Shown here: positions 17,056 to 64,000 of the stretch, piece by piece | Position numbering within the stretch: position 1 is the first letter of the stretch | Layout: each line of letters opens with the position of its first letter | Assembly (NCBI GenBank): GCA_900752335.1 | Contig: CAADUZ010000024.1 | Location: 2,200-66,199, forward strand | DNA from: Clostridia bacterium | GTDB lineage: Bacteria > Bacillota > Clostridia > TANB77 > CAG-508 | Length of the DNA: 64,000 nucleotides | Direction of reading: 5' to 3' | Position numbers and translations under genes: made by a program | Notes under the pieces: generated by a model | Databases searched by the model: none | Told to the model about the DNA's origin: nothing | What the model saw: only the letters and a program-made list of their open reading frames with translations

Positions 17056-17060
17056 ATTCT

Positions 17061-17120
17061 GGAACAAGGGGACACACAATTTGTTTCAAAAATGAAACAA
17101 ATTGTGTGTCCCCTTGTTCC
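17061..17120. terminator. long perfect hairpin (28-bp stem) between convergent smpB and fba; also a member of a repeat family
   Basis: ggaacaaggggacacacaatttgtttca-aaaa-tgaaacaaattgtgtgtccccttgttcc. A related copy lies at 52784-52915. Confidence 0.6.
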
Positions 17121-17136
17121 ACCTTGTTCCAATTTT

Positions 17137-32190: not shown

Positions 32191-32370
32191 AAATCTTCTC
32201 TCCTTTGTAAATCGTTATTCATATTATCAATTTATATAGTAGTATAAATAGTGGTATTGTATTTCCTACTACTATTTTGCATATTACTATTATACCAATA
32301 AATAGAAAAAAAACAACTTTTTTTGAGAGATTTTTTGAATTTGTGTAGCAAAATATAGGTAGTGGCGTTT

Positions 32371-32440
32371 GGGACTGAATGAAAAAAGTTGGGGAGGGAA
32401 ACTATTCAAGTTTCCCTCCCCAACTTTTTTCATTCAGTCT
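32371..32440. terminator. long hairpin terminator downstream of the pilin-like FGE gene
   Basis: gactgaatgaaaaaagttggggagggaaac / gtttccctccccaacttttttcattcagtc, near-perfect 30-bp stem. Confidence 0.6.
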
Positions 32441-32516
32441 TTTATATTTTATTATAATATATTTTATTTTGTCTATTTTTTCATTTCGAATAAAAATTCT
32501 TATACACTCACATAAT

Positions 32517-33746
32517 CTATTCCAAATAAAGTACTATGCGAAAGCCAAGATTTTCATAAGAATCGCCAGCCGCATCAAATTCAGGAAGACGAATAGCGCT
32601 GTAATTACTATCTGAATAACTTCCCCCTCTTGTCACACCACTTGCCATTATTTCTCCAAGCATATTATTACTAAAGAGTTCTTCTGTCCATTCTTTACAA
32701 TTTCCTAACATATCATAAATGTTTGAATATTTATCTGATTCTTTTCCAGTTACTTTATATTCTCCAGTTTGTTCCACTGACTGTGTATTTATATTGCCAT
32801 AATCACTATCTGTTGTTACAGCTAGTAAATACCCTTTCTCGTTTGTTTGACATACGAAATTTAGTGCTGTATCCCATGCATAACTGCTAGCTAATACGCT
32901 CGTAACATAATAATTATCGTACATTGCACTTGCTCGTATTCTTGCTGTATATAGTGTTACATGTGTAAATGGATACTTGCTTGCTTGTACCACTAGCGGT
33001 ATCTTCTCTGTATCTACTGGCGAAGTTATTTCTGTTTCACTTCCTGTTTCATATCTTCCTATATAAAATCCTTTATTCGTTATGCTACTTGTTTTGAAAT
33101 ATTCAAGCGGGTCTTGTACTAGTGAATTTCCTTCACCATAATAATATTCATTATATTCCTCGGCCAATGGCCCTGCTATTGCATCATCCCCATTTACTAG
33201 TGTTGAGCTATTTTCTGTAAATGTTCTTCTACTTAATTCATTTGTTAATTTTCCTGCAGAATTTATACTAGTAGATACATTATATTCTCCTACTGGTATC
33301 CACACAAATTGGTTTCCGGCATCGTCCTCTATTACTATTCCTTCTTCTACTTTTGTTCCACTATCTTCTGCTATATGAAATTCTCCTGGTATTGTTACTT
33401 CATTATCTAAATCGTCTGTTATTGTTGTTGTATCTTCAAATCTTTTTCCACTTTCTTTTGCTTCTTCCACTTCACTTTTTTCTACTGGCGGATTCTGGTC
33501 TTCCGCCATTATATTTGCATATTCGCTCATCAAACTATTCAACCCTTGTTGTTCTTCTAATGCTGCTTGCTCTGTTAATTCCTTGGCTTGCTGTGCTCTT
33601 TGAATGAGCCCTCCTTCTCCTAATACTACATTTAATGTTACTGTTGCAAGTATTATTAATATAACTATTGTTATTACTAATGCAATTAACGTAATACCTT
33701 TTTCTTGTGTTGCTTTAATTTTGTTCTTCTTCTTTACTTCTTTCAC
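32517..33746 (-). CDS. pilin-like N-terminal (prepilin-type) TM segment fused to an FGE-sulfatase (SUMF1-like) domain protein, paralog 1
   Basis: 409 aa; N-terminus KGITLIALVITIVILIILA (type IV pilin-like, Glu+5 replaced by Ala); C-terminus GNCKEWTEE...TRGGSYSDS...GFRIV (FGE-sulfatase hallmarks). Confidence 0.65.
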   Translation of the reverse strand: MKEVKKKNKIKATQEKGITLIALVITIVILIILATVTLNVVLGEGGLIQRAQQAKELTEQAALEEQQGLNSLMSEYANIMAEDQNPPVEKSEVEEAKESGKRFEDTTTITDDLDNEVTIPGEFHIAEDSGTKVEEGIVIEDDAGNQFVWIPVGEYNVSTSINSAGKLTNELSRRTFTENSSTLVNGDDAIAGPLAEEYNEYYYGEGNSLVQDPLEYFKTSSITNKGFYIGRYETGSETEITSPVDTEKIPLVVQASKYPFTHVTLYTARIRASAMYDNYYVTSVLASSYAWDTALNFVCQTNEKGYLLAVTTDSDYGNINTQSVEQTGEYKVTGKESDKYSNIYDMLGNCKEWTEELFSNNMLGEIMASGVTRGGSYSDSNYSAIRLPEFDAAGDSYENLGFRIVLYLE

Positions 33747-33812
33747 TTTTCTTTATCCTCCTTGTTTTTTTATTTATATATTTTTAAAATTAAAATCTAA
33801 ATTTATATATAT

Positions 33813-33850
33813 TTTTTGCACACAAAAAGGACAGACTATATGCCTATCTT
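33813..33850 (-). terminator. intrinsic terminator of the spoIIIA operon
   Basis: ggcggactatatgcc-aagata-ggcatatagtctgtcc followed by TTTTTGTGTGC on the minus strand. Confidence 0.5.
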
Positions 33851-33956
33851 GGCATATAGTCCGCCCTTTGTACTGATTTATTTGTCCTAATTTTGTATTA
33901 TTTATTTTACTTGTATTTTTTGCATAATTAATAAAGCCCAATTCTTTAAAATATAG

Positions 33957-33978
33957 CTCTCTCTCTCTCTCTCTCTCT
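33957..33978. repeat. (CT)11 dinucleotide microsatellite
   Basis: ctctctctctctctctctctct in the 420-bp intergenic region upstream of FGE paralog 1. Lies inside a 26-aa ATG ORF (34026 to 33946, minus strand) that has an RBS. Confidence 0.9.
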
Positions 33979-34166
33979 TACAGCTTCAAGCGTTTCGCTT
34001 CTTTCTATTTTTCTACTGTTCTTCATTTATTTTTCCTTTCTTTTTAATTATGCTCTTTTCTTTAGTGTATTTTTATTATATGCTATTTGTATTTTCTTTT
34101 CAATTACTTTTAGCAAATGTAATGTAATTTTAATATGTCTGTAACATTTTTGTAATATTTTACTTC

Positions 34167-47658: not shown

Positions 47659-47738
47659 GAGAAATTAGGGACAGGTCCCATTTTCCCATTTTTGAGTTTA
47701 ACTGGAAATGAGAATTTGAGACCTGTCCCTAATTTCTC
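47659..47738. repeat. 19-bp perfect inverted repeat with 42-bp spacer, overlapping the pbp1A stop codon
   Basis: gagaaattagggacaggtc … gacctgtccctaatttctc. The loop contains aaatgggaaaatgggacctgtccc (minus-strand reading), which recurs at 63541. Confidence 0.7.
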
Positions 47739-50306
47739 ACTTCGTTTTCTTGTCTTTCGGTATCTTCAGTATCTTCAGTGTTTTCGGTATTTTCGGTGTT
47801 TTCACTTTCTGTGTTGTTGTCCCCTGTACTTGGTTCATATATGTCATTTTCTTCTACAGTGTTTTCTGGTATATCGTTTTCTATTATAGTGTTTTCCTCT
47901 ACCACGTTTTCTACGATTTCATTTTCTATTGTATTTTCTTCTATTGTATTGTTGTTTACTGTTTCTTCGTCATCTGGATTTAATTCCAAATCTTCTTTGC
48001 TATCAACATATACATTTGTTTCGTCTTCTTCTTCGTCGTCTATATGTGCATTTACTTTACTTCCGCTATGCTTTGTACACTCTTCTGGCTCTGTTCCTTC
48101 TAAAAAGTATTCAATATATGTATTGTTGCATCCGCTTCTTGCAATTTCTCCAGTATCCTCACATATTTCTTCTACCGATATTTTTTTAGGTTGATAAAAT
48201 CTAGCTCCTGTAAATCCGTCATGTATGCTGCTCATTACATTTGCCCACATGATTCCTGCTGGGTTTTGGTTGTTGTAATATATTGTTTCGTTTTGGTCAA
48301 AGCCAAACCATGTAACTGCTGTATAATATGGTGTAAAGCCACATAGCCATTTGTCATAATTGTCATCCGTAGTTCCTGTTTTAGCAGCTACGTCTATGCT
48401 GTGTATTGAGCAATATGTTGCTGTTCCATAGCTTCCATCTACTGGCTCTTGTAATAGCTTTTTTAGTACATATGCTACTTGTTCTGAAAATACATTCCTT
48501 TTTTCTTGTTTTGTTTTTAATACAGTTTTTCCTGTAACGTCTACTACTTTTGTGTAAAATGTTGGCTCTATATACCTTCCGTCATTTGCTATTGTGGCAT
48601 AGGCTGCTGCCATTTCAAGTGGTGTTATTCCATTGTCTAACCCTCCTAATGCAAGTGGCAAGCCTTCGTCATTTTCTGTAAGTGAAGTTATACCCATTTT
48701 TTCTAAATATGAAATTGATTTTTTAGGTGTAATCTCTTCCATCATTTCTACAAATGGAACATTTTGGGAAGATTCTAGCGCTCTTCTTACTGTTATTTTT
48801 CCTAAATATCCAGAGTTATTTCCTGGTGCATATCCGTCTTCAAATGTTTTCTTTTCGTCGTCATAAATCGTTGCACCAGTAAATATTTTTTCATTAATTC
48901 CTGGCACTAGCACTGCTAGTGGTTTTATTGCAGAGCCTGTTTGTCTTTGACTTTGCGTTGCTCTATTTAGTCCTCTAAATGTTTCCTTTTCTCCGTAATC
49001 CTCCTGTACAAGCAAGTACTTCTCCTGTTTGGTGGTTTAGTATAACCATTGCTGCTTGCGAGGTATCTTCTCCATTTTCGGAATACAAGATATATTGGCT
49101 TTTTAAAGATTCTTCTTCTACTTTTTCTTGTATGCTTGAATCTTGTGTGCTATATATAGTTGAACCTGATAGGTATAAATAATTCTTTGCAAAATCTTCC
49201 GAAATGTTTTTCTCTTCTGCTAAATCCTCTATTACTTCATTTATTAGTGCATCTGTATGATATGAATAAATGCAATCTCCTGTTTCTATTTCTCCTTCTT
49301 CAAAATCAAGTCCATTATTTACTTCATTTACCGCTTCTTCGTATTCACTATTAGATATTTTGCCTAATTCAAGCATTTTTTGTAGCACTGTTAATGTTCT
49401 ATCCGAAATATCTTCTTCGTTATCATATCCCTCAAATGGGTTATAGTAGTTTGGTGAGTTATTTATTCCTGCCAAATATGCACACTCTGCTAAAGACAAA
49501 TCTTTTACGTCTTTGTCAAAATAGTAATGAGCTCCAGTTTGCACGCCATACACATTTGGTCCAACATAAATTACGTTTAAATACATTTCCAAAATTTCTT
49601 CTTTAGTAAAGTAACTTTCTAGTAGAAATGCCTTCCACCATTCCTTTACTTTACGAGTTACAGAGTCTGTATTATCGCCAGTTAAGTTTTTAACTAATTG
49701 CTGCGTAATCGTGCTTCCTCCATATGAAGAATTACCAAAATGAGTTATATAGTTTAATATTGCTCCGCCAGTTCTTTTTATATCAATTCCATGGTGAGAG
49801 TAAAATCGTTCGTCTTCTATTGATACATACGCATCCAGTAAATTCTGTGGCATTTCTTCTATATCCACTGTCATCTTTTTCTGTTCATTTCCAAGCTCTG
49901 CAATTACTTCTCCGTTTTTATCTAAAACAACAGAGTTTTTATTTGTAAACATTGCTGTACTTATTTTTTTCCAATTATGGGCTGAAATTCCAAGAAAAAT
50001 CCCAAGTGCTACTAATAAAATTAGTATAATTATTAAGATAACTTTTCTTTTAAAAGCCTTTTTCCTTTTTTTGGCTGCTTTAGAGTTCTTGGTTTCTCTT
50101 GCATTTCTGCTTAGCTCACTTTTATTTATTTTATTATACTGCGCATTATTTCTCTTTGCTGCTTCTCTTCTTTCTTTGTCTTGCTTCATTTTTAGCACAG
50201 ATTTAGGAATTTCCTCTTCTTCGTTTCTTACTCTTCTCAAAACTATTCTCCTATCATAATATTTTATTTCTTTACATATTTTATACCGAATTTTAGTTTT
50301 TAGCAA
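47729..50306 (-). pseudogene. class A penicillin-binding protein 1A (GT51 glycosyltransferase plus transpeptidase), split by a frameshift near 48995-49007
   Basis: ORF 48975-50306 has GT51 (IEDERFYSHHGID) and ends HQTGEVLACTGGLRRKGNI*. ORF 47729-49015 continues in another frame (DYGEKETFRGLNRATQSQRQTGSAIKP, SQN, KTGT). One missing base in a G run (acaggagg|attac) restores …GG.DYGEKETF…. Confidence 0.7.
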
Positions 50307-52758: not shown

Positions 52759-52783
52759 TTACTTTTTCACTTTCTTTCTTTTT

Positions 52784-52915
52784 GGAACAAGGGGACACAC
52801 ATTTTGTTCCAATTTTGAAACAAAGGGACAGACATTAATAAATTCTGATAATTTTAATTTACCATATCCGTCCCCAATTTTCTTTTTTGGAACAAAATGT
52901 GTGTCCCCTTGTTCC
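52784..52915. repeat. MITE-like element with 27-bp terminal inverted repeats, related to the 17061 hairpin
   Basis: ggaacaaggggacacacattttgttcc … ggaacaaaatgtgtgtccccttgttcc flanking a 78-bp AT-rich core. Confidence 0.65.
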
Positions 52916-52923
52916 AGTTTTTG

Positions 52924-53652
52924 CTAAATCCCAGCTTTTTCTGCTATCATAAATCCAGCATAAACAGTAGAGTATTCTGCCGTTATTTCTTTTAGTAATT
53001 CCTTTTCCTCTTCCATTAGTGCTTTTCCTAAATTAGACATTTTCTTGTCTAGCTTTTGTGTCATTTTTGCACAGTCTTTTAGTTCTTTTTGTATGTTTTT
53101 TGGTACTTGCTTATCATATTTATAGTTTATTTTATGTTCCAAGCTTGCCCAAAAGTCCATTGCCATTGTTCGTATCTGTATTTCTACTTTTACGTCTATT
53201 GTTCCTATCGATAGGCTAACTGGAACAGATACTATTAAATGGTAGCTTGAATATCCACTTTCTTTTGGAGATTGCACATAGTCTTTTTTCTTTATAATAG
53301 TGATGCCCGGCATATTTTCAATCATTTCTACTATTTTATATATGTCTGGTATAAATGAGCATATTATTCTCATTCCCGCTATATCGTTAATTGTTTTTAT
53401 TAAGTTTTCATAGTTTAGTTCCAAGCCTTTTTTCTTTAATTTCTTTACTATGCTTTCTTTACTTTTTATTCTGCTACTTGTATGTTCTATCGGATTATAC
53501 TTATGTAATACTTTAAATTCTTCACTTATTGTATTTATTTTTCCCTCTATTTGTTGTAGTGCTGCTGTATACATGAATGTGAGTCTTTTATATTCCATAT
53601 CCTCTTGCAGGCTATTTTCTTTTTTTACTACTTGATTTTCTATAGTAATCAA
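52924..53652 (-). CDS. small alarmone synthetase (RelQ/RelP-like GTP pyrophosphokinase)
   Basis: 242 aa; HKYNPIEHTSSRIKS…DIAGMRIICSFIPDIY matches the RelA_SpoT synthetase domain of YwaC/YjbM. Confidence 0.85.
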   Translation of the reverse strand: MITIENQVVKKENSLQEDMEYKRLTFMYTAALQQIEGKINTISEEFKVLHKYNPIEHTSSRIKSKESIVKKLKKKGLELNYENLIKTINDIAGMRIICSFIPDIYKIVEMIENMPGITIIKKKDYVQSPKESGYSSYHLIVSVPVSLSIGTIDVKVEIQIRTMAMDFWASLEHKINYKYDKQVPKNIQKELKDCAKMTQKLDKKMSNLGKALMEEEKELLKEITAEYSTVYAGFMIAEKAGI

Positions 53653-54996: not shown

Positions 54997-57204
54997 TTAA
55001 ATCTTTTTTAATCTCAAGCTGTTTAGTGTAACTGTCAAACTGCTTAATGTCATTGCGATTGATGCAAACATTGGGTTCATTGTAATTCCAAATGGACTAA
55101 ATATACCTACTGCTATTGGTATCATACAAACATTATAGAAAAATGCCCAAAATAAATTCTGTTTAATATTTCTAATCGTTTTTTTGCTTATATACATAAG
55201 TTCATTTATTTTTCTTAAATCGTCATTCATAAGCACTATGTCGCTGCTATCCATTGCTATGTCTGTTCCTCCACCTACTGCCACACCTATATCTGCAGTA
55301 ACTAAACTAACACTGTCGTTTATTCCATCTCCACACATCATTACTAAACCATTTTGTTTTAGTTCTTTTATTTTTTCTGCTTTTTCTTTTGGAAGCACGT
55401 TTGATATAACATGTGCTATTCCTATTTTATCTGCTATTGTTTTGGCTGTTTTTTCGTTATCCCCTGTAAGCATTACAACTTCTATCTCTTGTTTTTTTAG
55501 TGTTTCTACTACTTCTATAGCATGTTCTTTTATTGTGTCCTTTACACCTATTAGGGCTATTAGCACATTTTCTTCTGATGCAAATAATATGCTGTTACCA
55601 TCTTTTTCTAGTTCTTCTTCATTTCTTAATGCCCTTGATATATCCACATTGTTTTCCTTCATAAGTTTACTATTTCCAATTAGATAGCTTTTTCCTTGGT
55701 ACTGTGCTTTTACACCATAGCCAGGTATATTTGTAAATTCTTCTACTTCTTCTAGTTGCAAGTTATTATCTGCAGCATAATTTACTATTCCTTTTGCTAT
55801 AGGGTGCTCTGATTTGTTTTCTATGCTTGCAATTATTTTTAATAAATTATTATTATCTATTTTCTCGTCAGTATAGTTGTATATTTTGCTTACGCCCAAT
55901 TTGCCATTTGTAAGTGTACCTGTTTTGTCAAACACTACCGTTTTTACTTTGTGCGAATTTTCTAGTCCTTCACTATTTTTTATTAAAATTCCTCTTTTAC
56001 TTGCTTCTCCTGACGATATAACTATTGCAAGTGGTGTTGCTAATCCCAAACTGCAAGGGCAAGCAACTACAAGTACGGTTACAAATGTGTTTATTACAAA
56101 TGAAATATCTTTCCCAAGAGCTAGCCAAATTACAGCTGAAACTATAGCTATAGCTATTATAGTTGGCACAAAGTATCCGCTTATTTTATCTGCAATTTTA
56201 GCTATTGGTGCTTTTGTATTAGTTGCTTCTACAACCATTCGCACAATTTCGGATACAGTTGATTCTTTGCCTATTTTTTCTGCTTTATACTTTATTGTGC
56301 CTTCATAGTTTATACTGCCCGCAACTACTTTATTTCCTATTTCTTTTTTAGCTGGTACACTTTCCCCAGTAATAAATGATTCGTCTATATGGGTTGAACC
56401 TTCTACAATTTCTCCATCTACCGCAATTTTTTCTCCAGGCCTACAAAGCGCTATATCTTCCTTATTTATTTCGTCAAGCGTTACTTCTATTTCTTTCCCA
56501 TCTTTTATAACAGTAGCTTTGTTTGGGGTAATCATCATTAAACTTTGTATTGCTTCTTTTGTTTTATCTTTATTTCTCTCTTCTATAAATCTACCTATGT
56601 TTATGAAAAATAGAATTATAACGACAGATTCATAGTACAAATGCCCTACATATTCTGTTTTTCCTTTTATTATCATATATGTATTATACATACTATAAAG
56701 CAAACTGCTAAACACGCCTAGCATTACAAGTGTGTCCATATTTGCAGTTCTATGTATTAAATTTTTGAATCCGTTTTTTATAATATTTCTACCTAAAAAT
56801 ATAGATATAATGCTTAATATTAAAAGCGAAATAGTATAGTTTACTGGATATGTATGCATGCTTAAAAATGGGATTTCTGGTAATCCTATCATATGTGCCA
56901 TAGCTATGTATAAAGTTATAACTGCAATAATTCCAAAACCTATTAATTTGTACTTTTCCCTTGATTTTTTCTTTTCTTCTTTTTGCAAATTATCAATACC
57001 TAAACTTTCGAATCCAGCTTTTTGTACAAATTTCTCTATTTGCGGAATGTCTAGCTTTTTCTCGTCATATTCCACACTTGCATTATTCATTACCAAGTTT
57101 ACTGTAGCATTTATTATTCCATCTTGTTTATTTAGGTATTTTTCTAGTCCACTAGAACATGCACTACAAGTCATTCCATCTATTTTTAGTAAAACTTTTT
57201 TCAT
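54997..57204 (-). CDS. copA: copper-translocating P1B-type ATPase
   Basis: N-terminal HMA domain GMTCSACSSGLEK, CPC motif ACPCSLGLATP, DKTGTLT, GDGINDS. Confidence 0.9.
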   Translation of the reverse strand: MKKVLLKIDGMTCSACSSGLEKYLNKQDGIINATVNLVMNNASVEYDEKKLDIPQIEKFVQKAGFESLGIDNLQKEEKKKSREKYKLIGFGIIAVITLYIAMAHMIGLPEIPFLSMHTYPVNYTISLLILSIISIFLGRNIIKNGFKNLIHRTANMDTLVMLGVFSSLLYSMYNTYMIIKGKTEYVGHLYYESVVIILFFINIGRFIEERNKDKTKEAIQSLMMITPNKATVIKDGKEIEVTLDEINKEDIALCRPGEKIAVDGEIVEGSTHIDESFITGESVPAKKEIGNKVVAGSINYEGTIKYKAEKIGKESTVSEIVRMVVEATNTKAPIAKIADKISGYFVPTIIAIAIVSAVIWLALGKDISFVINTFVTVLVVACPCSLGLATPLAIVISSGEASKRGILIKNSEGLENSHKVKTVVFDKTGTLTNGKLGVSKIYNYTDEKIDNNNLLKIIASIENKSEHPIAKGIVNYAADNNLQLEEVEEFTNIPGYGVKAQYQGKSYLIGNSKLMKENNVDISRALRNEEELEKDGNSILFASEENVLIALIGVKDTIKEHAIEVVETLKKQEIEVVMLTGDNEKTAKTIADKIGIAHVISNVLPKEKAEKIKELKQNGLVMMCGDGINDSVSLVTADIGVAVGGGTDIAMDSSDIVLMNDDLRKINELMYISKKTIRNIKQNLFWAFFYNVCMIPIAVGIFSPFGITMNPMFASIAMTLSSLTVTLNSLRLKKI

Positions 57205-57214
57205 ACATTACCTC

Positions 57215-57439
57215 TTATTCTTCTGCTTCAAAGCCTGTATCTTCTATTGCTTCTTTTATTTCTGCTATGTTTGTTTTTCCATCTTCATATTCTATATTAG
57301 CTTTTGCATTTTCAAAACTAACCTCTGCTTTTGTAACTCCATCTTGATTATTTAAAACCTTTTCTAGTCTTGTACTACAACCTGTGCAGTGCATTCCTTT
57401 TATTTTCAACTCTACTTTTTCCATAATATATCCCTCCAT
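57215..57439 (-). CDS. copZ: copper chaperone CopZ (HMA domain)
   Basis: 74 aa; GMHCTGCSTRLEK. Confidence 0.85.
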   Translation of the reverse strand: MEGYIMEKVELKIKGMHCTGCSTRLEKVLNNQDGVTKAEVSFENAKANIEYEDGKTNIAEIKEAIEDTGFEAEE

Positions 57440-57441
57440 TT

Positions 57442-57987
57442 TTAATTTTCAAAATTAATTTCTTTTACATTATCCTCTATCAAAAAAATCATATTTTCGT
57501 GTAAAGCACTAGCATCCACTATTTTTTCTGTATCTAGCTTAATATATGTGCCTTCAGCATTGGCTAGTGTATTTCCATGTATGTCTAATATTTTAGCCTC
57601 TGCTTTTATAAACTTCGGTGTTGATTTTATAATTTTTCCAACGCCAATTAATTCCTCATTATATGGCACTGGTTTTCTGTATTCTGTATCAAGCTTCATT
57701 GTAACGGCAAAGTCTTCCTCATTTTCTACCCAATAGGCTCTTAAACCTAACTCGTCAAGCATTGCTGTAATAAGTCCTCCATGTACTCTTCCCGGATAAC
57801 TTTGGTGGAATTCTTCATATTTAAATTTAGTCATAACGCTACTATCTTCCATGTTATAAAATGGTGCTTTTAATCCATATTTATTGTTCATTCCGCATAT
57901 AACGCACATTTCACTATTTTTTTGCTTACTAATTACTTTCATTTTCTCTACGCTCCTAATTAATACTTCACTTTTAACATGTATCAT
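57442..57987 (-). CDS. hotdog-fold (PaaI-family) thioesterase-like protein with N-terminal CxxC
   Basis: RVHGGLITAMLDE (HGG motif); N-terminal CVICG. Confidence 0.55.
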   Translation of the reverse strand: MIHVKSEVLIRSVEKMKVISKQKNSEMCVICGMNNKYGLKAPFYNMEDSSVMTKFKYEEFHQSYPGRVHGGLITAMLDELGLRAYWVENEEDFAVTMKLDTEYRKPVPYNEELIGVGKIIKSTPKFIKAEAKILDIHGNTLANAEGTYIKLDTEKIVDASALHENMIFLIEDNVKEINFEN

Positions 57988-58022
57988 TATATCACAATAT
58001 TAAATTATTTTCCTATTAATTT

Positions 58023-59651
58023 TTAAAAATTTGCTTGCTTCATTACATTGCTAATAAACTCTTCTTTTTGCAAAGGTTTTGAGTAATAATACCCTTGCAG
58101 AATATCACAACCTTTTTCCGTTAAATATTCTTTCTGTGTTTTTGTTTCCACCCCTTCTGCTATGGTTTTTAATTTAAACTTTTTGGCTATATTTAATATA
58201 TCTTCTACAATATTTTGGTCTACAAAAGACTTGTCTATTTTAAGTATATCTATTGGCATATCATATAGAATGTTTAAAGAAGAATATCCTGTTCCAAAAT
58301 CGTCTATTGATATTAGAAATCCTGCTTTTTTTATTTCTTTCATAATTTTTATCATATCTATTTTGCTATCTATCGTTGCACTTTCAGTTATTTCTAAATC
58401 TAATTTTTCAGTGCTTATGCCATACTTATTAGCTATTTTTGCGTAGTCATTTATGAAGTCCTTTTCTACCAAATGTTTTCTTGAAACATTAATCGATATA
58501 GGTATATCCACACCATAGTTTTCTTTCCATTCTTTCATGTCCTTGCAGACTCTTTCAAAAATATATAGGTCTAATTTTAATATGAATTTGTTTCTTTCAA
58601 AAATCGGTATAAACACACTTGGCATAATCATTTTATCATTTTTCTTCCATCTAACAAGTGCTTCTGCTCCATATATTTTTCCTGTTTTTGCATACACTTT
58701 TGGTTGGTAATAAACCACAAATTCGTTATCCTTCAGGGCCTTTTTCATGTCCTTTTCTATTTGCTTTTCTAATGCTGAATAATTTTTTCTCCTTTTGAAA
58801 TTTATTATAACTATATATGAAAGAATTGTTAGTATTACAATTATAACCACAATAACCATAATAAATGTAGTAAGAAGTGCTTTATTTATTTCGCCTGCTA
58901 TTGTTTTTGATGGAATAAACGAAACAATGGACCATTTGTTCACCTCTATATTTTCCTGTGCCATATAATATTTATTGCCGTCTATATCAATTATTTTAGT
59001 TTTTTTGTCTTTGTTGTTTTGTAAAATATCTGCTATTTTTTTACTGTCAATTTCTTTATTACTACTAACAACTATATTTCCTTCTCTATTTGTAATATAG
59101 CTAAAACCTTCTCCCTCAAATATTTTATTAGAAAATATATCTTTATATGAATTTGTATTTACAATTAAAAGGATTGCTATTTTTTCTTTTTTTATTTTTA
59201 TCATTTTTGAGTATATATTTATTTCTTCTCCATTTATTTTACTTTTTCTGTTTTCTGATATTAAGATTTCTGCATCAGAAAAGAAGTTTTCTTTTTCACT
59301 TGAATAGTCTAATTCATACCCATCATTTGTTATAGTATAGCCATCTTCATACATTATTCCCATTCGTATAAAATTGCTCGTAATCTCACTTTTTTCATAT
59401 AAATCAAATATTTTTTCTTCATTTATCTCATTATCTTGAGTTATTTGACTTGCAACAGTTTGCAATATTTCTTTTTGCTTTGATATTTTAGTATTTAAGT
59501 TTTCTGCATCAGTTTTTGTTATAGTGTCTATGCTATTACTTGCATTTGTTTCTATCTTATTTATCATGTATGTCATATAGCTTATTCCTATTGTTACTAG
59601 GACTATTAATATGAAGAGGATGGTGAGAAGCGGTTTAATATTTTTTCTCAT
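58023..59651 (-). CDS. sensor c-di-GMP phosphodiesterase (EAL domain) with periplasmic sensing domain
   Basis: 542 aa; TM, extracytoplasmic domain, second TM, EAL (YYQPKV…EALVRW, DDFGTGYSSL). No GGDEF seen. Confidence 0.8.
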   Translation of the reverse strand: MRKNIKPLLTILFILIVLVTIGISYMTYMINKIETNASNSIDTITKTDAENLNTKISKQKEILQTVASQITQDNEINEEKIFDLYEKSEITSNFIRMGIMYEDGYTITNDGYELDYSSEKENFFSDAEILISENRKSKINGEEINIYSKMIKIKKEKIAILLIVNTNSYKDIFSNKIFEGEGFSYITNREGNIVVSSNKEIDSKKIADILQNNKDKKTKIIDIDGNKYYMAQENIEVNKWSIVSFIPSKTIAGEINKALLTTFIMVIVVIIVILTILSYIVIINFKRRKNYSALEKQIEKDMKKALKDNEFVVYYQPKVYAKTGKIYGAEALVRWKKNDKMIMPSVFIPIFERNKFILKLDLYIFERVCKDMKEWKENYGVDIPISINVSRKHLVEKDFINDYAKIANKYGISTEKLDLEITESATIDSKIDMIKIMKEIKKAGFLISIDDFGTGYSSLNILYDMPIDILKIDKSFVDQNIVEDILNIAKKFKLKTIAEGVETKTQKEYLTEKGCDILQGYYYSKPLQKEEFISNVMKQANF

Positions 59652-59756
59652 AGTTTCACCTTTGCTTATTTTTTTACTATATTTATTTTGAGTTGTATTT
59701 TGATTATTTATACAAAAAACTACCTACATACTTTATTGTACATTGGTAGTTTTATT

Positions 59757-60614
59757 TCATCTATTTATAAATTCTTTTAGAATATCTATTTTCTCTTCCA
59801 TATCTTTTTTGCCATCTTCATATAATTTTTGCAGTTTTTCTTTATCTTTTTCTAGTCTTGATACTGTAACAGGCACTTTTGGTGCAATTACCATAATTTC
59901 TCCTCTTTTTTCTAATTCGTTAATATGCACTTTTAAGTCATTATATCTTTCTGGCATAGTACAAAGTTTTTCCACAAGTTTAGGATATTTATGATAAACT
60001 TTTTTATACACACGCTTCATTGTATTAGAAACTTCTGGTTTTCTATAATCTCTATCACGAGTTAAAACCACTACAATGTTTTTGTGGCCTTCTTTTAATG
60101 CCCAGTCTACTGGTATTGGCATTGTTACTGCTCCATCTAAATAGTGGTTGTTTCCTATCTTTACCATTCTTGAACAAAGTGGCATACTAGAAGATGCTTG
60201 TACCACTTTATATATGTCGTCTTTGCAGTCACTTTTTTCCACATATTCTGCTATGCCTTTTTCGCAATTAGTAATAACTGCAATGAATTTTTGCGTTGAA
60301 TTTTTAAATGTTTCTTCGTCAAAAGGATATTCTTTTTTAGAAATTTCGTTAAACAAATAGTCGTATCCAATGAGTCCTTTTTCTTTTCTTAATGCTTTTA
60401 TACCTATGTATCTTGGATTATCGCAATATTCTATATTAAGTTTTGCCGCCCTGCCTTCTTGTTTTGCCACATAATTCATACCAGTAAGTGCTCCTGCAGA
60501 AACACCTAAAATATAATTTGCTTCTATGTTATTCTTTAATAATACATCTAAAACGCCTGAAGTATACTGGCTTCTTAAAGCTCCTCCTTCTAGTATTAAT
60601 GTTAGTTCTTGCAT
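59757..60614 (-). CDS. patatin-like phospholipase
   Basis: GGALRSQYTSGVLD (GGxR), GVSAGA (GxSxG), DGA. Confidence 0.8.
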   Translation of the reverse strand: MQELTLILEGGALRSQYTSGVLDVLLKNNIEANYILGVSAGALTGMNYVAKQEGRAAKLNIEYCDNPRYIGIKALRKEKGLIGYDYLFNEISKKEYPFDEETFKNSTQKFIAVITNCEKGIAEYVEKSDCKDDIYKVVQASSSMPLCSRMVKIGNNHYLDGAVTMPIPVDWALKEGHKNIVVVLTRDRDYRKPEVSNTMKRVYKKVYHKYPKLVEKLCTMPERYNDLKVHINELEKRGEIMVIAPKVPVTVSRLEKDKEKLQKLYEDGKKDMEEKIDILKEFINR

Positions 60615-60645
60615 TTTATCACCTTTCTAATTCATACATGTTGTT

Positions 60646-61200
60646 TTATATATTCTTTTTTACTCTACATGGATTTCCATACGCTACTACATTTGCAGGA
60701 ATGTCCTTCGTTACAACACTTCCTGCCCCTATTGTAGAATTATCGCCTATTGTAACCCCTGGAAGAATTGTAACATTTCCTCCTATCCATACATTGTTTC
60801 CAATTTTTACACTTTTTGCATATTCTAGTCCTTCATTTCGCTCTTCTGTATTTATAGGGTGGTAAGCAGTATAAATGTTACAGTTTGGAGCAATAAATAC
60901 ATTATCTCCTATTTCAACTTTAGCAGCATCCAATATTATTAATCCGTGATTTGCATAAAAATTATCTCCAACACTTATATTATATCCATAATCACATAAA
61001 AAAGGCTGTTCTATGCGAATATTTTTTCCTGCTTTTCCTAATATTTTATTAATTATTTCTTCTCTTTTCTCTATTGCTGATGGTTTTAGATTATTGTATT
61101 CATAACATAAGTCTTTTGCCTTAAGCATTTCATTTATTAATTCTTTGTCATAATTAGGATTATATATCTCTCCTAAATCTCTTTTTTCTTTTTCAGTCAC
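60646..61200 (-). CDS. maa: maltose/galactoside O-acetyltransferase (hexapeptide repeat, Mac family)
   Basis: 184 aa; Mac N-terminal domain plus left-handed beta-helix hexapeptide repeats. Confidence 0.8.
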   Translation of the reverse strand: MTEKEKRDLGEIYNPNYDKELINEMLKAKDLCYEYNNLKPSAIEKREEIINKILGKAGKNIRIEQPFLCDYGYNISVGDNFYANHGLIILDAAKVEIGDNVFIAPNCNIYTAYHPINTEERNEGLEYAKSVKIGNNVWIGGNVTILPGVTIGDNSTIGAGSVVTKDIPANVVAYGNPCRVKKNI

Positions 61201-61202
61201 TT

Positions 61203-61823
61203 TTATTCTCCTTTGTTGTTATTTTCGTTTTTATCATCGCTTATTCCCATTGTTTCTTTTATAACTTGATTTAAAAACTCAATATTTGCATCATCTAATA
61301 CAGTTTCTTTATCATTTTTTGATAAGCTTTTTATCTCTGGTTTAAAGCAGTATATTATTCCATTAGTGTCTTCTATTATATATGTTACTGTAGCATTATC
61401 AGTTATTTTGCTATTATATTCCAAATGTCCTATTATATCTCTAATATCGCTTTTATTTATATCATTTACTTCTTTTTTGTTCTCTGGGTCTTTAGTAGAA
61501 TATATATACATTGGTGCCCTATCATACTCTTCTACTTCGTTGTCAAAATCATTTATATCCATAAGCCAAGAGCCAATTTTGGTTTCGTTATATCCATTTA
61601 TTTTATTAAATTTTATAACCTTATATCCAAGTCCATAATATTCTCTCGAGCCACCATCCAAGTATGCTCCTTCTGATGCGACACAATATAGTGGGTCCAT
61701 GCCATTATCAATTCTTGCTTTATCTATGCTGTATAAAATTATTCCAAGAGTCGTTAGAACTATAACAGAAATTAAAATTATAACTAATATAGATATTAAG
61801 GCTACTTTAATCGTTTCTTTCAT
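61203..61823 (-). CDS. hypothetical N-terminally anchored protein
   Basis: 206 aa; single N-terminal TM. Confidence 0.4.
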   Translation of the reverse strand: MKETIKVALISILVIILISVIVLTTLGIILYSIDKARIDNGMDPLYCVASEGAYLDGGSREYYGLGYKVIKFNKINGYNETKIGSWLMDINDFDNEVEEYDRAPMYIYSTKDPENKKEVNDINKSDIRDIIGHLEYNSKITDNATVTYIIEDTNGIIYCFKPEIKSLSKNDKETVLDDANIEFLNQVIKETMGISDDKNENNNKGE

Positions 61824-61950
61824 ACGTTTTCCTCCTTATTTTTCCGAGTAATGCTATTCTTTTGTTGTGTTTCAATTTGTATTTATTATGTCATTAAAAT
61901 TTATATCTTATATTATAATAGATTATATTTATTTTTCCAATAGAATTACT

Positions 61951-62024
61951 AATATTTTTTCAATTTTATTTTACACACAAAAAAACCGCTATAAGTTTTA
62001 TACTTATAACGGTTATTGGTTTTA
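61951..62024. repeat. 72-bp direct repeat (copy 1) containing an intrinsic terminator
   Basis: aatattttttcaattttattttacacacaaaaaaaccgctataagttttatacttataacggttattggtttt; about 93% identical to 63424-63496. Confidence 0.8.
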
Positions 62025-62042
62025 AATATTCTACTCTTTCTA

Positions 62043-63260
62043 TCAGCTTTCAGGATTTACATAAAGCTGGAGGCGGAATGAAATGTTGGTAGAGCTATTG
62101 CTCGTAGCAACGTTGCCACGAAAAGCTGCATAGAGGCTATTGTAGTAACCACCACCTCTACTGACACAAGGACCGTGGCCGCTTGAGTACTCTGTTGTCC
62201 ATTCAAAACAATTACCTAATAAATCATGAATATTAGAATAATTATCTGCTTCATATTCTCCTGTTTGTGTTCTATTGTCTGTTCCTATATTTCCATAAGT
62301 AGCATCGGTTGTTGTTGCTAATAAATATCCTTCTGTATTAGTCTGACATATAAAGTTTAATGCTGTATCCCATGCATAACTACTTATTAGTTCACTTGTT
62401 ACATAACTATTTCCATTATACATTGCTTCCGCTTGTGTTTTTGCATTATCTCTTGTTATATCTACATATGGATTTACTCCTGCTTTACATACATTTCCTT
62501 CTCCTTGCTCATATCTGCCTATATAAAACCCTTTGTTATTAGTTGCGCTTGTTTTAAAAGCATCTATCTGGTCCTTTGCTACTGAATTTTCATTTCCTTC
62601 TCCATAATAATATTCATTATCTTCAATATTTTCTCCGGCTATTGCATCATCTCCATTTACTGGCGTTGAATCACTATCTGTAAATGTTCTTCTACTTAAT
62701 TCATTTGTTAATTTACCGGATGAATTTATTGTATCGGATACGTTATATTCTCCTACTGGTATCCACACAAATTGATTTCCGGCGTCGTCCTCTATTACTA
62801 TCCCTTCTTCTACTTTTGTTCCACTATCTTTATCCAAATGAAATCCACCTGGTATTTTTACAGAATTATCTAAATCGTCTGTTATTGTTGTTGTATCTTC
62901 AAATTTTGGTCCATCTTCACTTGGATTTGGTTTTGCTTCTTCTATTGGCGTAGTTTCTTCTGGTGGATTTGTTGTACCTGTTCCCGCAAGTATGCCGTTT
63001 ATAAATTTCTCTGCTCCTTTTAATTCGTCTTGCTCGTCTTTTTGTGCTTGCTCTGTTAATGTTTTTCCTTCTTGGGCTCTTTGTATTAATCCACCTTCTC
63101 CGAACACTAATGTTATTGTTACTGTTGCAAGTATTATTAGAATAATAATTGTTATAACTAATGCAATTAATGTAATACCTCTTTCTTTACTATACATTTT
63201 TGAAGTTCTTTGAAGACTTGTTTTGCCTACTTTTTTGTTTGGCTCATTTGCTTCTTTCAT
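62043..63260 (-). CDS. pilin-like N-terminal TM segment fused to an FGE-sulfatase domain protein, paralog 2
   Basis: 405 aa; RGITLIALVITIIILIILA; C-terminus GNCFEWTTE…SRGGGYY…SFRLQ. Long blocks about 90% nt-identical to paralog 1. Confidence 0.65.
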   Translation of the reverse strand: MKEANEPNKKVGKTSLQRTSKMYSKERGITLIALVITIIILIILATVTITLVFGEGGLIQRAQEGKTLTEQAQKDEQDELKGAEKFINGILAGTGTTNPPEETTPIEEAKPNPSEDGPKFEDTTTITDDLDNSVKIPGGFHLDKDSGTKVEEGIVIEDDAGNQFVWIPVGEYNVSDTINSSGKLTNELSRRTFTDSDSTPVNGDDAIAGENIEDNEYYYGEGNENSVAKDQIDAFKTSATNNKGFYIGRYEQGEGNVCKAGVNPYVDITRDNAKTQAEAMYNGNSYVTSELISSYAWDTALNFICQTNTEGYLLATTTDATYGNIGTDNRTQTGEYEADNYSNIHDLLGNCFEWTTEYSSGHGPCVSRGGGYYNSLYAAFRGNVATSNSSTNISFRLQLYVNPES

Positions 63261-63423
63261 TTTTTCTTTTCTCCTTTCTTATGTACCTTTTTCTTTTTAG
63301 TCTTATCCTTTTTGTTTCTTTTTATACATTTATTTAATCAATAGTCTTTTCGTACTTTGTCGTTTTATACTTCCAGTACGTTTTTATTTTATACTAATAG
63401 TTCTGTTTTTACAATACTTTTTT

Positions 63424-63496
63424 AAAATTTTTTCAATTTTATTTTAGGCACAAAAAAACCGCTATAAGCTTTATACTTATAACGGTTATTTGTTTT
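63424..63496. repeat. 72-bp direct repeat (copy 2) containing the rny terminator
   Basis: Near-identical to 61951-62024; hairpin ccgctataag…cttataacgg then a T-tract on the minus strand. Confidence 0.8.
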
Positions 63497-63540
63497 ATTC
63501 TCAAAATTTGCCATTTTTATCTCTGTCCTCAATGGTTATA

Positions 63541-63578
63541 AAATGGGAAAATGAGACCTGTCCCCAAATTCTCATTTT
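63541..63578. repeat. degenerate copy of the 47659 palindromic element
   Basis: aaatgggaaaatgagacctgtccccaaattctcatttt matches the loop/arm junction of the 47659-47738 element on the opposite strand. Confidence 0.6.
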
Positions 63579-64000
63579 GCGTAGTCTATTACTCTTGTTT
63601 CTCTAACTAGGTTTACTTTTATCTGTCCTGGGTATTCCATTTCGTCTTCTACTTTTTTAGCTACGTCCCTTGCCATTATTACCATTTGGTCGTCTGATAT
63701 TTTTTCTGGTTTTACTATTATTCTTATTTCTCTACCAGCTTGTATAGCGAAAGATTTTTCTACTCCTTCAAATGAGTCTGCTATGTTTTCAAGTGATTCT
63801 AGCCTTTTTATGTAGTTTTCTAATGTTTCGCGTCTTGCTCCTGGTCTTGATGCTGATATTGCGTCTGCTGCTTGTACTAAAACTGCTTCTATTGTTTGTG
63901 GTTCTACGTCGCCATGGTGTGCTTGTACGGCATTTATTACTTTGTCGTTTTCTTTGTATTTCTTTAATACTTCCACACCTATTTCTACGTGTGTTCCTTC
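63572..64000 (-). CDS. rny: ribonuclease Y, C-terminal HD domain (5' part of gene beyond window)
   Basis: [44 protein letters not shown] is the RNase Y C-terminus. The frame is open to the window edge. Confidence 0.85.

Follow-up and report, generated by a model that had tools for sequence, protein, structure and literature searches.

The 64,000-nt stretch of contig CAADUZ010000024.1 analysed here (Clostridia bacterium, lineage TANB77, CAG-508; hereafter the window) encodes near its end a protein of 405 amino acids, paralog 2, which belongs to a family with a second member, paralog 1, in the same window. We consider it likely that paralog 2 is a target gene of a diversity-generating retroelement (DGR) and encodes a variable protein of the cell surface, that it is now orphaned, and that the terminator on both sides of the gene was duplicated by a rearrangement. 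The parts of the gene that matter most are listed below; L numbers denote loci that were fetched for comparison.

62043..63260, minus strand: coding sequence (CDS) of paralog 2, an intact open reading frame (ORF) of 405 aa.
62062..62193 (about 130 nt), minus strand: variable region (VR) of paralog 2, aligning to the template repeat (TR) at L062 4166-4303.
62062..62085 (approximate), minus strand: GC-rich 3' end of the VR, TTCCGCCTCCAGCTTTA, resembling an initiation-of-mutagenic-homing (IMH) site and common to the TR except for the terminal CTCTA/CTTTA.
63102..63179, minus strand: hydrophobic N-terminal helix RG/ITLIALVITIIILIILATVT, prepilin-signal-like, with Ala instead of Glu at +5.

The template was found in a related lineage, whose cassette at the same site next to rny was located via homologues of the 206-aa gene downstream of paralog 2. 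The order of genes is there rny, target (408-410 aa), MutS_I (145 aa), bAvd (124 aa), the reverse transcriptase (RT) RVT_1 (335 aa), an 87-aa ORF and the 206-aa gene. A TR of 138 nt (L062 4166-4303; AGAGTACTCAAGCAACAACAACAATCC...CCAGCTCTA), which reads as AAY-rich (AAC/AAT) codons, follows directly after the RT gene and matches the 3' end of the target (L062 1817-1960). Between this cognate VR and the TR, mismatches occur at 21/55 adenines in comparison to 3/35 C, 0/19 G and 1/29 T positions (non-A 4/83). Across three assemblies of that lineage the targets differ at 0/1089 positions outside the VR and at 27-28/147 inside it, and the VR is different in every assembly except L062 and L071, whose targets are identical. 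Because the targets are identical outside the VR and differ inside it, this retroelement is an active DGR of the type that carries a MutS-like protein (MSL) and Avd. Such MSL+Avd cassettes as well as remote targets are known (Wu et al., PMC5758913).

The VR of paralog 2 differs from the same TR at 22/51 A, 3/34 C, 0/19 G and 1/28 T positions (non-A 4/81). This adenine bias is significant (Fisher p = 1.1e-7) and the mismatch profile matches that of the cognate VR. The 3' boundary of the VR looks IMH-like: TTCCGCCTCCAGCT is common to VR and TR, the CTCTA of the TR is CTTTA in every VR, paralog 2 included, and the end of paralog 2 is intact save one synonymous T-to-A change that is specific to this copy. 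Judged by non-A mismatches, only two copies in L057 (7/82 and 8/83) fit the TR besides paralog 2. Paralog 1, a third copy (paralog 3, see below) and the other FGE-type alleles of the paralog 1 locus misfit it, with 21-27 non-A mismatches of 69-82 (paralog 1 27/69). Since paralog 2 is the only copy within the window that fits the TR, it is the one that has a bona fide VR.

The predicted protein consists of a charged N-terminal leader, one hydrophobic helix, a charged coiled stalk, a Pro/Glu linker and a head that resembles FGE-sulfatase and C-type lectin (CLec) domains. The VR spans about aa 356-399 of the 405 residues, where the head reaches its C-terminus, and the entropy of the family alignment peaks at aa 361-393. 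The Pfam family FGE-sulfatase (PF03781) is matched weakly by paralog 2 (14.5 bits) and above the cut-off by paralog 1 (27.3 bits). These matches are partial, since only the C-terminal third of the 255-position profile is reached (142-223 or 174-254), and that of paralog 2 is below the cut-off, so that a catalytic FGE is not supported. DGR targets often carry the Pfam label FGE-sulfatase (PMC4159848), and cellular DGR targets are usually membrane-anchored and modular (PMC8144416). An AlphaFold model of paralog 2 (mean pLDDT 70.8) was matched by Foldseek exclusively to proteins of the FGE/CLec fold, including the DGR variable proteins Mtd (1yu0-4), TvpA (2y3c) and TaqVP (5vf4).

A class III signal is composed of Gly at -1, a hydrophobic residue at +1, Glu at +5 and a subsequent hydrophobic helix (PROSITE PS00409, TIGR02532, PF07963). 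The N-terminus of paralog 2 reads RG/ITLIALVIT..., and among 62 homologues the residues G28, T30, L31, L34, V35 and T37 never vary, while A33 is kept in at least 90%. The N_methyl family (PF07963) scores 15 bits, under the cut-off of 21.2, and NCBIfam contains no family for paralog 1 or paralog 2. In the neighbourhoods of the three paralog loci, to which the view was restricted, no pilus or secretion assembly genes (prepilin peptidase, ATPase, platform) adjoin paralogs 1-3; the neighbours are housekeeping genes, namely rny and the 206-aa gene, spoIIIAH and pfk, and the DUF4912 gene and valS. A true type IV pilin or pseudopilin was rejected on account of the conserved Ala at +5, the N_methyl score below the cut-off and the lack of an NCBIfam match. 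We therefore treat the N-terminus as a signal anchor or a degenerate pseudopilin-like helix that bears interchangeable, DGR-diversified heads.

The surroundings of paralog 2 comprise the following features.

61950..62024, minus strand: repeat copy A, an intrinsic terminator (stem-loop 61984-62014 plus T-run) with AT-rich tail, beginning 18 nt after the paralog 2 stop.
63261..63422, minus strand: promoter (TTGTAA-17-TAAAAT at 63414..63386) and leader of about 120 nt of paralog 2.
63423..63497, minus strand: repeat copy B, the terminator of rny (stem-loop 63457-63487, T-run and AT-rich tail), directly upstream of the paralog 2 promoter.
63572..64000, minus strand: 3' end of rny (RNase Y; NCBIfam TIGR03319, E = 9e-69), the upstream neighbour; the whole gene is present in locus L001.
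61203..61823, minus strand: hypothetical gene of 206 aa, the downstream neighbour, which adjoins rny in empty-site strains.

The two repeat copies are identical at 70/75 nt (93%), with a weak extension to about 93 nt at 88%. Each forms a 13-bp stem with a 5-nt loop and a T-run on the minus strand, copy B follows the rny stop codon, and a terminator scan of the region returned two sites, namely these two copies, versus 0.5 expected by chance. In L065, L067 and L068, which represent closely related strains (206-aa protein 97% identical), the site is empty: rny is directly followed by the 206-aa gene, with a single 75-nt copy that aligns to both copies of the window. The 75-nt repeat is shown to be the intrinsic terminator of rny, present twice. 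The insertion/deletion polymorphism of the cassette is real, because closely related strains hold an empty site with one copy. An earlier note on this DNA had described repeats of about 72 bp and about 93% identity as the footprint of a cassette duplication or insertion, and had suggested looking for the presence or absence of paralog 2 in related strains. Both the repeat and the polymorphism stand; the repeat itself is the terminator of the host gene.

Taken with the cassette of the related lineage, the rny site occurs in three states: empty, target only and full retroelement. The full cassette has a left junction identical to that of the window and at its right junction a partial copy of about 17 nt, AAAATTGAAAAAGATTTT; it is bracketed by a direct repeat of about 17 nt, AAAATTGAAAAA(G)ATTTT. 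At the right junction of the window, homology to the 3' flank of the DGR-linked target extends up to ...gtagaatatt; inside a TAAAA microhomology it gives way to the sequence usually found ahead of the rny terminator. The promoter and leader of paralog 2 are common to paralog 3, where homology of L003 reaches window position 63445, and to the DGR-linked target of the related lineage (L062 is 98.7% identical to the window down to position 63329).

In the full cassette of the related lineage the active retroelement copies the template RNA with errors at adenines, and the resulting cDNA is written into the target gene at its 3' end. For the window we propose the following history. The retroelement module would have been lost, or never transferred, in this lineage. 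The simplest reading of the terminator duplication would be an illegitimate join at TAAAA, connecting the sequence after the target stop to the position immediately before the terminator of an empty-site allele or of a sister copy. A tandem duplication of terminator, promoter and target, followed by a deletion between the 17-nt repeats, would be an equivalent route. Either route would duplicate the terminator and drop the RT module, and would leave paralog 2 as an orphaned, frozen variant that could be active only if a DGR with the same template were present elsewhere in the genome. Family members moreover swap segments by homologous recombination or gene conversion, as the statistics below show, and the patchy identity of paralog 2 with paralog 1 results from this family-wide exchange.

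An adjacent RT, Avd and TR, which all occur at the same site in the related lineage, are absent from the window and from the other contigs that were fetched from these metagenomes. With RT, Avd, MSL and the 87-aa ORF (tblastn) and with the TR (blastn), nothing could be identified in the 64-kb window beyond the VR of paralog 2 itself, and the window contains no TR recognizable with the 3' ends of paralogs 1, 2 and 3. RT, Avd, MSL and TR were likewise not detected in the other contigs fetched from the same metagenomes (about 40 kb). An exact 24-mer of the TR 3' end, used in a single JGI metagenome scan, matched one unrelated contig, and the metagenome that carries this strain was not matched. 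Ongoing diversification of paralog 2 is not seen either, as its VR is identical in L001, L002 and L051, three assemblies that are possibly not independent samples. The lack of RT, Avd, MSL and TR in the window, the identical VRs and the missing JGI match together favour the orphan reading, and we conclude that paralog 2 is probably an orphaned, frozen target. That it is instead still an active remote target, served in trans by a DGR with the same template elsewhere in the genome, with the terminator duplication being incidental, seems rather unlikely to us. Remote targets at distances above 100 kb have been described (PMC5758913), the tandem pair at the valS locus of another strain fits this TR although 5 kb around it contain no RT, and the IMH-like end of paralog 2 is intact apart from the synonymous change. 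However, the VR of the active relative differs between assemblies (L062 and L071 excepted) while that of paralog 2 does not, and the searches in the window, in the contigs of the same metagenomes and in the JGI metagenome containing this strain argue in the same direction.

Several points weigh against the reading of paralog 2 as an orphaned remnant of a DGR cassette. With only about 78% identity to the target of the DGR in L062, its CDS is a different mosaic allele and no simple derivative. The possible dependence of the three assemblies weakens the argument from the frozen VR, the JGI scan demanded an exact 24-mer, and the inspected sequence amounts to 64 kb of the genome plus about 40 kb of further contigs, so that a DGR located elsewhere could act in trans; the two L057 copies fit the TR although they are not beside an RT. 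The Foldseek matches are weak (E about 1e-3 to 1e-2, TM 0.2-0.5) because the model comprises anchor and stalk and has a mean pLDDT of 70.8, though their probabilities reach 0.99. Finally, the change among empty, target-only and full-cassette states may have run in either direction, and rny is 97-100% identical in all three lineages, which makes flank identity uninformative on the donor.

Paralog 2 is one copy of a large recombining family, for which the comparison with paralog 1 is instructive.

32517..33746, minus strand: CDS of paralog 1, an ORF of 409 aa of the same family as paralog 2.
62635-62923 versus 33172-33460, minus strand: central block, 86% identical between paralogs 2 and 1 over 289 nt and conserved across the family.

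Both paralogs lie on the minus strand, separated by about 29.5 kb that contain spoIIIAA-AH, yebC, AbiEi/AbiEii and a gene for a transglycosylase and transpeptidase; the direct orientation, the distance of about 29 kb and the intervening genes (the last one as PBP1A) had been given correctly in the earlier note. The proteins are 57% identical (E = 3e-124). At the DNA level identity is patchy, as that note held, and not uniform. It is restricted to the coding regions, where besides the central block 78% over the N-terminal 169 nt and 74% over 126 nt are reached, and it falls to background in the last ~150 nt and in both flanks; promoter, leader and flanks of the two genes are unrelated. No perfect match is longer than 40 nt, and the claimed stretches of about 90% exist solely as 60-nt windows within the central block. 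The synonymous divergence (dS) is low in the central block (0.14-0.46) and saturated toward the 3' end. However, conservation of this block extends beyond the pair, as it is 82-93% identical among all family members compared in the species group.

More than 7,000 homologues of paralog 2 were found in public data, mostly from uncultured gut Clostridia, and many of them are nearer to it (75-84% aa identity) than paralog 1 (57%). The relatives obtained in a scan of genome contigs were at most 58% identical to paralog 2, and the species of the window was not recovered. Paralog 3 (L003) originates from the same two metagenomes as the contig of the window, is located between the DUF4912 gene and the T-box leader of valS, and is homologous to paralog 2 in the CDS and, over about 185 nt, in promoter and leader; this genome apparently contains at least three family copies. 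The strain is also present in metagenome ERZ28597031. On a 1.475-Mb contig of a related lineage the N-terminal module recurs in at least six genes. The paralog 1 locus varies strongly between strains whose SpoIIIAH or PFK proteins are identical: it holds alleles of 409, 421, 425 and 436 aa, of which the 425-aa allele is identical in three samples, tandem pairs, alleles with another head domain, or insertions of ToxN or resolvase genes. The valS locus of another strain carries two tandem family copies. The alleles are mosaics of few interchangeable leader, anchor/stalk, linker and head segments, and the nearest relative of paralog 2 shifts along the length of the gene. The PHI statistic is 0.371 in comparison to 0.509 +/- 0.007 for permuted data, with 0/1000 permutations as low. 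Because of the mosaic alleles and the PHI result, the patchiness reflects recombination throughout the family and no recent event from paralog 1 to paralog 2.

The earlier note had proposed a recent duplication or gene conversion, taken here as one from paralog 1 in a cassette with a 72-bp target duplication, and a sporulation segment of 29 kb that could be deleted by recombination between the paralogs. Direct orientation, patchy identity, the low dS of the central block and the real polymorphism at the site are in line with this explanation. We nevertheless regard it as improbable, since paralog 1 belongs to the more remote relatives that paralog 2 has in the species group, since flanks, promoter and leader are unlike those of paralog 1 and common to paralog 3 and the DGR-linked target, and since the longest perfect match is short. 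Recombination among family members is what holds of the proposal. A recent copy of paralog 1 was rejected in view of the 57% versus 75-84% amino acid identity and the unlike flanks and promoter. For the deletion no evidence was found, identity tracts not exceeding 40 nt: sequence from the rny side is joined to pfk in 0/10 distinct configurations (23 contigs read), and no junction appears in the ten places shown around spoIIIAH, although consensus assemblies could miss rare events. All ten pfk configurations and all ten spoIIIAH places keep spoIIIAH or other non-rny sequence upstream.

Two further explanations concern the protein and the repeat. According to one of them the family consists of type IV pilins or pseudopilins that vary like pilE/pilS by gene conversion alone, and the adenine pattern is a coincidence of AT-rich codons. 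An N-terminus near the prepilin motif, the JGI label PulG pseudopilin and the mosaic alleles speak for it, but the conserved Ala in place of Glu+5, on which the term "pilin-like" of the earlier note fails, and the low N_methyl score do not fit. In addition, all copies are full-length with their own promoters and thus no silent cassettes, and the A-specific mismatches match a real TR beside an RT, with G and T positions essentially untouched; this explanation is thus quite improbable. The other takes the 75-nt repeat as a dispersed mobile element, similar to miniature inverted-repeat transposable elements (MITE) or repetitive extragenic palindromes (REP), or as a target-site duplication by a transposase or integrase, and has hardly any probability in our view. 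The repeats do bracket the cassette exactly, and the full cassette of the related lineage is flanked by its direct repeat of about 17 nt. However, among all fetched loci the element occurs at the rny site only, and thus at this locus alone in everything fetched from this genome; it is a functional-looking rny terminator that is present once in empty sites, and the cassette contains no transposase or integrase. Known target-site duplications are, to our knowledge, far shorter than 75 nt. A transposon target-site duplication was rejected, as the 1.4-kb insert consists of promoter and CDS only and the duplicated 75 nt equal the host terminator.

The paralog 1 locus differs from those of paralogs 2 and 3 by an additional leader element.

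33747-34166, minus strand: leader region of paralog 1 with leader ORF (34026-33946), (AG)11 tract (33957-33978) and hairpin (33829-33865).

A promoter TTGAAA-17-TATAAT is followed by a leader ORF of 26 codons (MKNSRKIERSETLEAV-RERERER-AIF*) that holds the (AG)11 tract, and single-sequence folds indicate a hairpin of 16-18 bp and a T-run some 80 nt upstream of the start codon. Family genes of other strains and of two further species have this arrangement in front of them as well; it is not present at paralogs 2 and 3. The tract has n = 11 in ten contexts, n = 10 in four and n = 9 in one, plus one interrupted case; otherwise identical leaders were seen with n = 11 and n = 10, and with n = 9 the leader ORF reads through the hairpin. 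Slipped-strand control of the leader terminator may be suspected from this pattern.

In some strains the paralog 1 locus (L080 1508-3854, also L074 and L081; partial allele L043 5158-5805) encodes a 313-aa protein with the same N-terminal module and a DUF1566-like head. This allele has its own TR (L080 2992-3138) and VR (2319-2462), with mismatches at A 21/53, C 0/24, G 2/28 and T 1/39, and its VRs differ between assemblies. The RT beside it is represented by fragments of 68-147 aa only.

At the 3' end of paralog 1 a long near-perfect palindrome of its own is found (stem ~30 bp, window 32369-32444), which is unrelated to the 75-nt repeat and gave spurious matches to miRNA families in Rfam; Rfam searches of both paralog loci yielded such spurious hairpin matches and nothing else. 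Another long palindromic element, TTCTGGAACAAGGGGACACACAATTTGTTTCA...TGAAACAAATTGTGTGTCCCCTTGTTCCA, is present in two copies (17057-17132 and 52780-52927, 83-87% identical) and could be REP/MITE-like or a shared bidirectional terminator. A hairpin-forming motif of 37 nt, AAATGAGAATTTGAGACCTGTCCC...TCTCA, occurs at 47706-47742 and 63541-63577 (84% identical); one of them extends over the stop codon of rny, and its counterpart adjoins the end of another gene.

Tandem pairs of family genes are located at L041 5159-8599, L057 3232-6203 and L073 381-4168, and the duplicated unit includes the upstream intergenic region with promoter and (AG)n leader. A ToxN-like toxin gene lies between the two L073 copies and another beside a family gene in L059. 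Paralog 3 is followed by the apparent valS T-box leader (L003 11300-11630), with no terminator of its own recognizable by eye. Other family genes are found just upstream of aminoacyl-tRNA synthetase genes as well, namely ileS in L059 and argS beyond pfk at the paralog 1 locus. In another species (L005 3368-7242) homologues of the MutS-like gene and of the 87-aa ORF lie between two family genes and are only about 250 nt apart; the Avd-RT-TR part seems to be deleted there too. The window and the DGR-bearing lineage are 94-99% identical across spoIIM-xerD-rny as well as in the copper-ATPase region. Immediately downstream of the cassette site about 4 kb (window ~57200-61150 versus L070 14110-18056; 206-aa gene, acetyltransferase, patatin, EAL) are about 82% identical, which suggests an imported divergent block adjoining the hot spot.

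Several independent assemblies end in or near the family genes: L037, L045 and L047 break within the (AG)n tract (window 33966-33976), and L052-L056 at the 3' end of paralog 2 or shortly past it (window 61926-62078), two of them beyond the terminator copy. The breaks are probably caused by repeats between paralogs or by heterogeneity within the samples, and the family will be under-represented in short-read assemblies.

Paralog 2 belongs to the known class of DGR variable-protein genes, and is set apart by the lack of a retroelement beside it, the three-state site and its membership of a recombining multi-copy family. As a speculation, surface variation in these small-genome gut Clostridia might have two, possibly three tiers. 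One DGR locus would create new binding tips, and homologous recombination would move tips, heads (FGE- or DUF1566-type) and anchors among expression loci and between strains, with "stranded" targets such as paralog 2 remaining as frozen, heritable variants. The (AG)9-11 leader ORF with its intrinsic terminator could in addition toggle single copies via slipped-strand frame changes.

What would otherwise be annotated as an anonymous pilin-like FGE paralog becomes interpretable as a surface binding protein that is diversified by a DGR and stems from an uncultured lineage of human-gut Clostridia. The three states of the site are a natural experiment on gain, orphaning and fixation of DGR targets, and inform how DGR mutagenesis and ordinary recombination combine in a multi-copy family. 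For annotators, a weak FGE-sulfatase match together with a hypervariable C-terminus is a reason to seek a template repeat even without a nearby RT.

Among known systems, the variable proteins of DGRs (TvpA of Treponema denticola, Mtd of the Bordetella phage, TaqVP of Thermus) share with paralog 2 a C-terminal CLec/FGE-like domain with the VR at the very end, adenine-specific differences between VR and TR, and an AAY-rich template. Sequence identity between paralog 2 and the solved DGR proteins is 10-14%. The Treponema system has, like this family, several related targets per genome, some of them remote (PMC5758913). Unlike those proteins, paralog 2 has no RT, Avd or TR beside it in the window and is anchored by a prepilin-like helix without Glu+5. 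The MSL+Avd cassettes known as "architecture D" (Wu et al. 2018), which occur in Legionella and also in Bacteroides DGRs, show the same order of target, MSL, bAvd, RT and TR as the related lineage. In contrast to these, the allele of the window keeps the target alone, between housekeeping genes, and the module is replaced by a duplicated terminator of the host.

The pilE/pilS system of Neisseria generates antigenic variation of surface proteins by gene conversion. It resembles the family described here in its multiple copies, a conserved N-terminal module, shuffled variable segments and statistically supported recombination, but here the copies are complete and look like expressed genes, unlike silent donors, and the most variable segment stems from reverse transcription. 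Homology-facilitated illegitimate recombination is reportedly known from naturally transformable bacteria, in work ascribed to de Vries & Wackernagel 2002 and Prudhomme et al. 2002. The site of paralog 2 is alike in that one side is perfectly homologous (rny plus terminator) while the other junction lies in the 5-nt TAAAA microhomology; it differs in that there is no sign of transformation here and an intrachromosomal route gives the same product.

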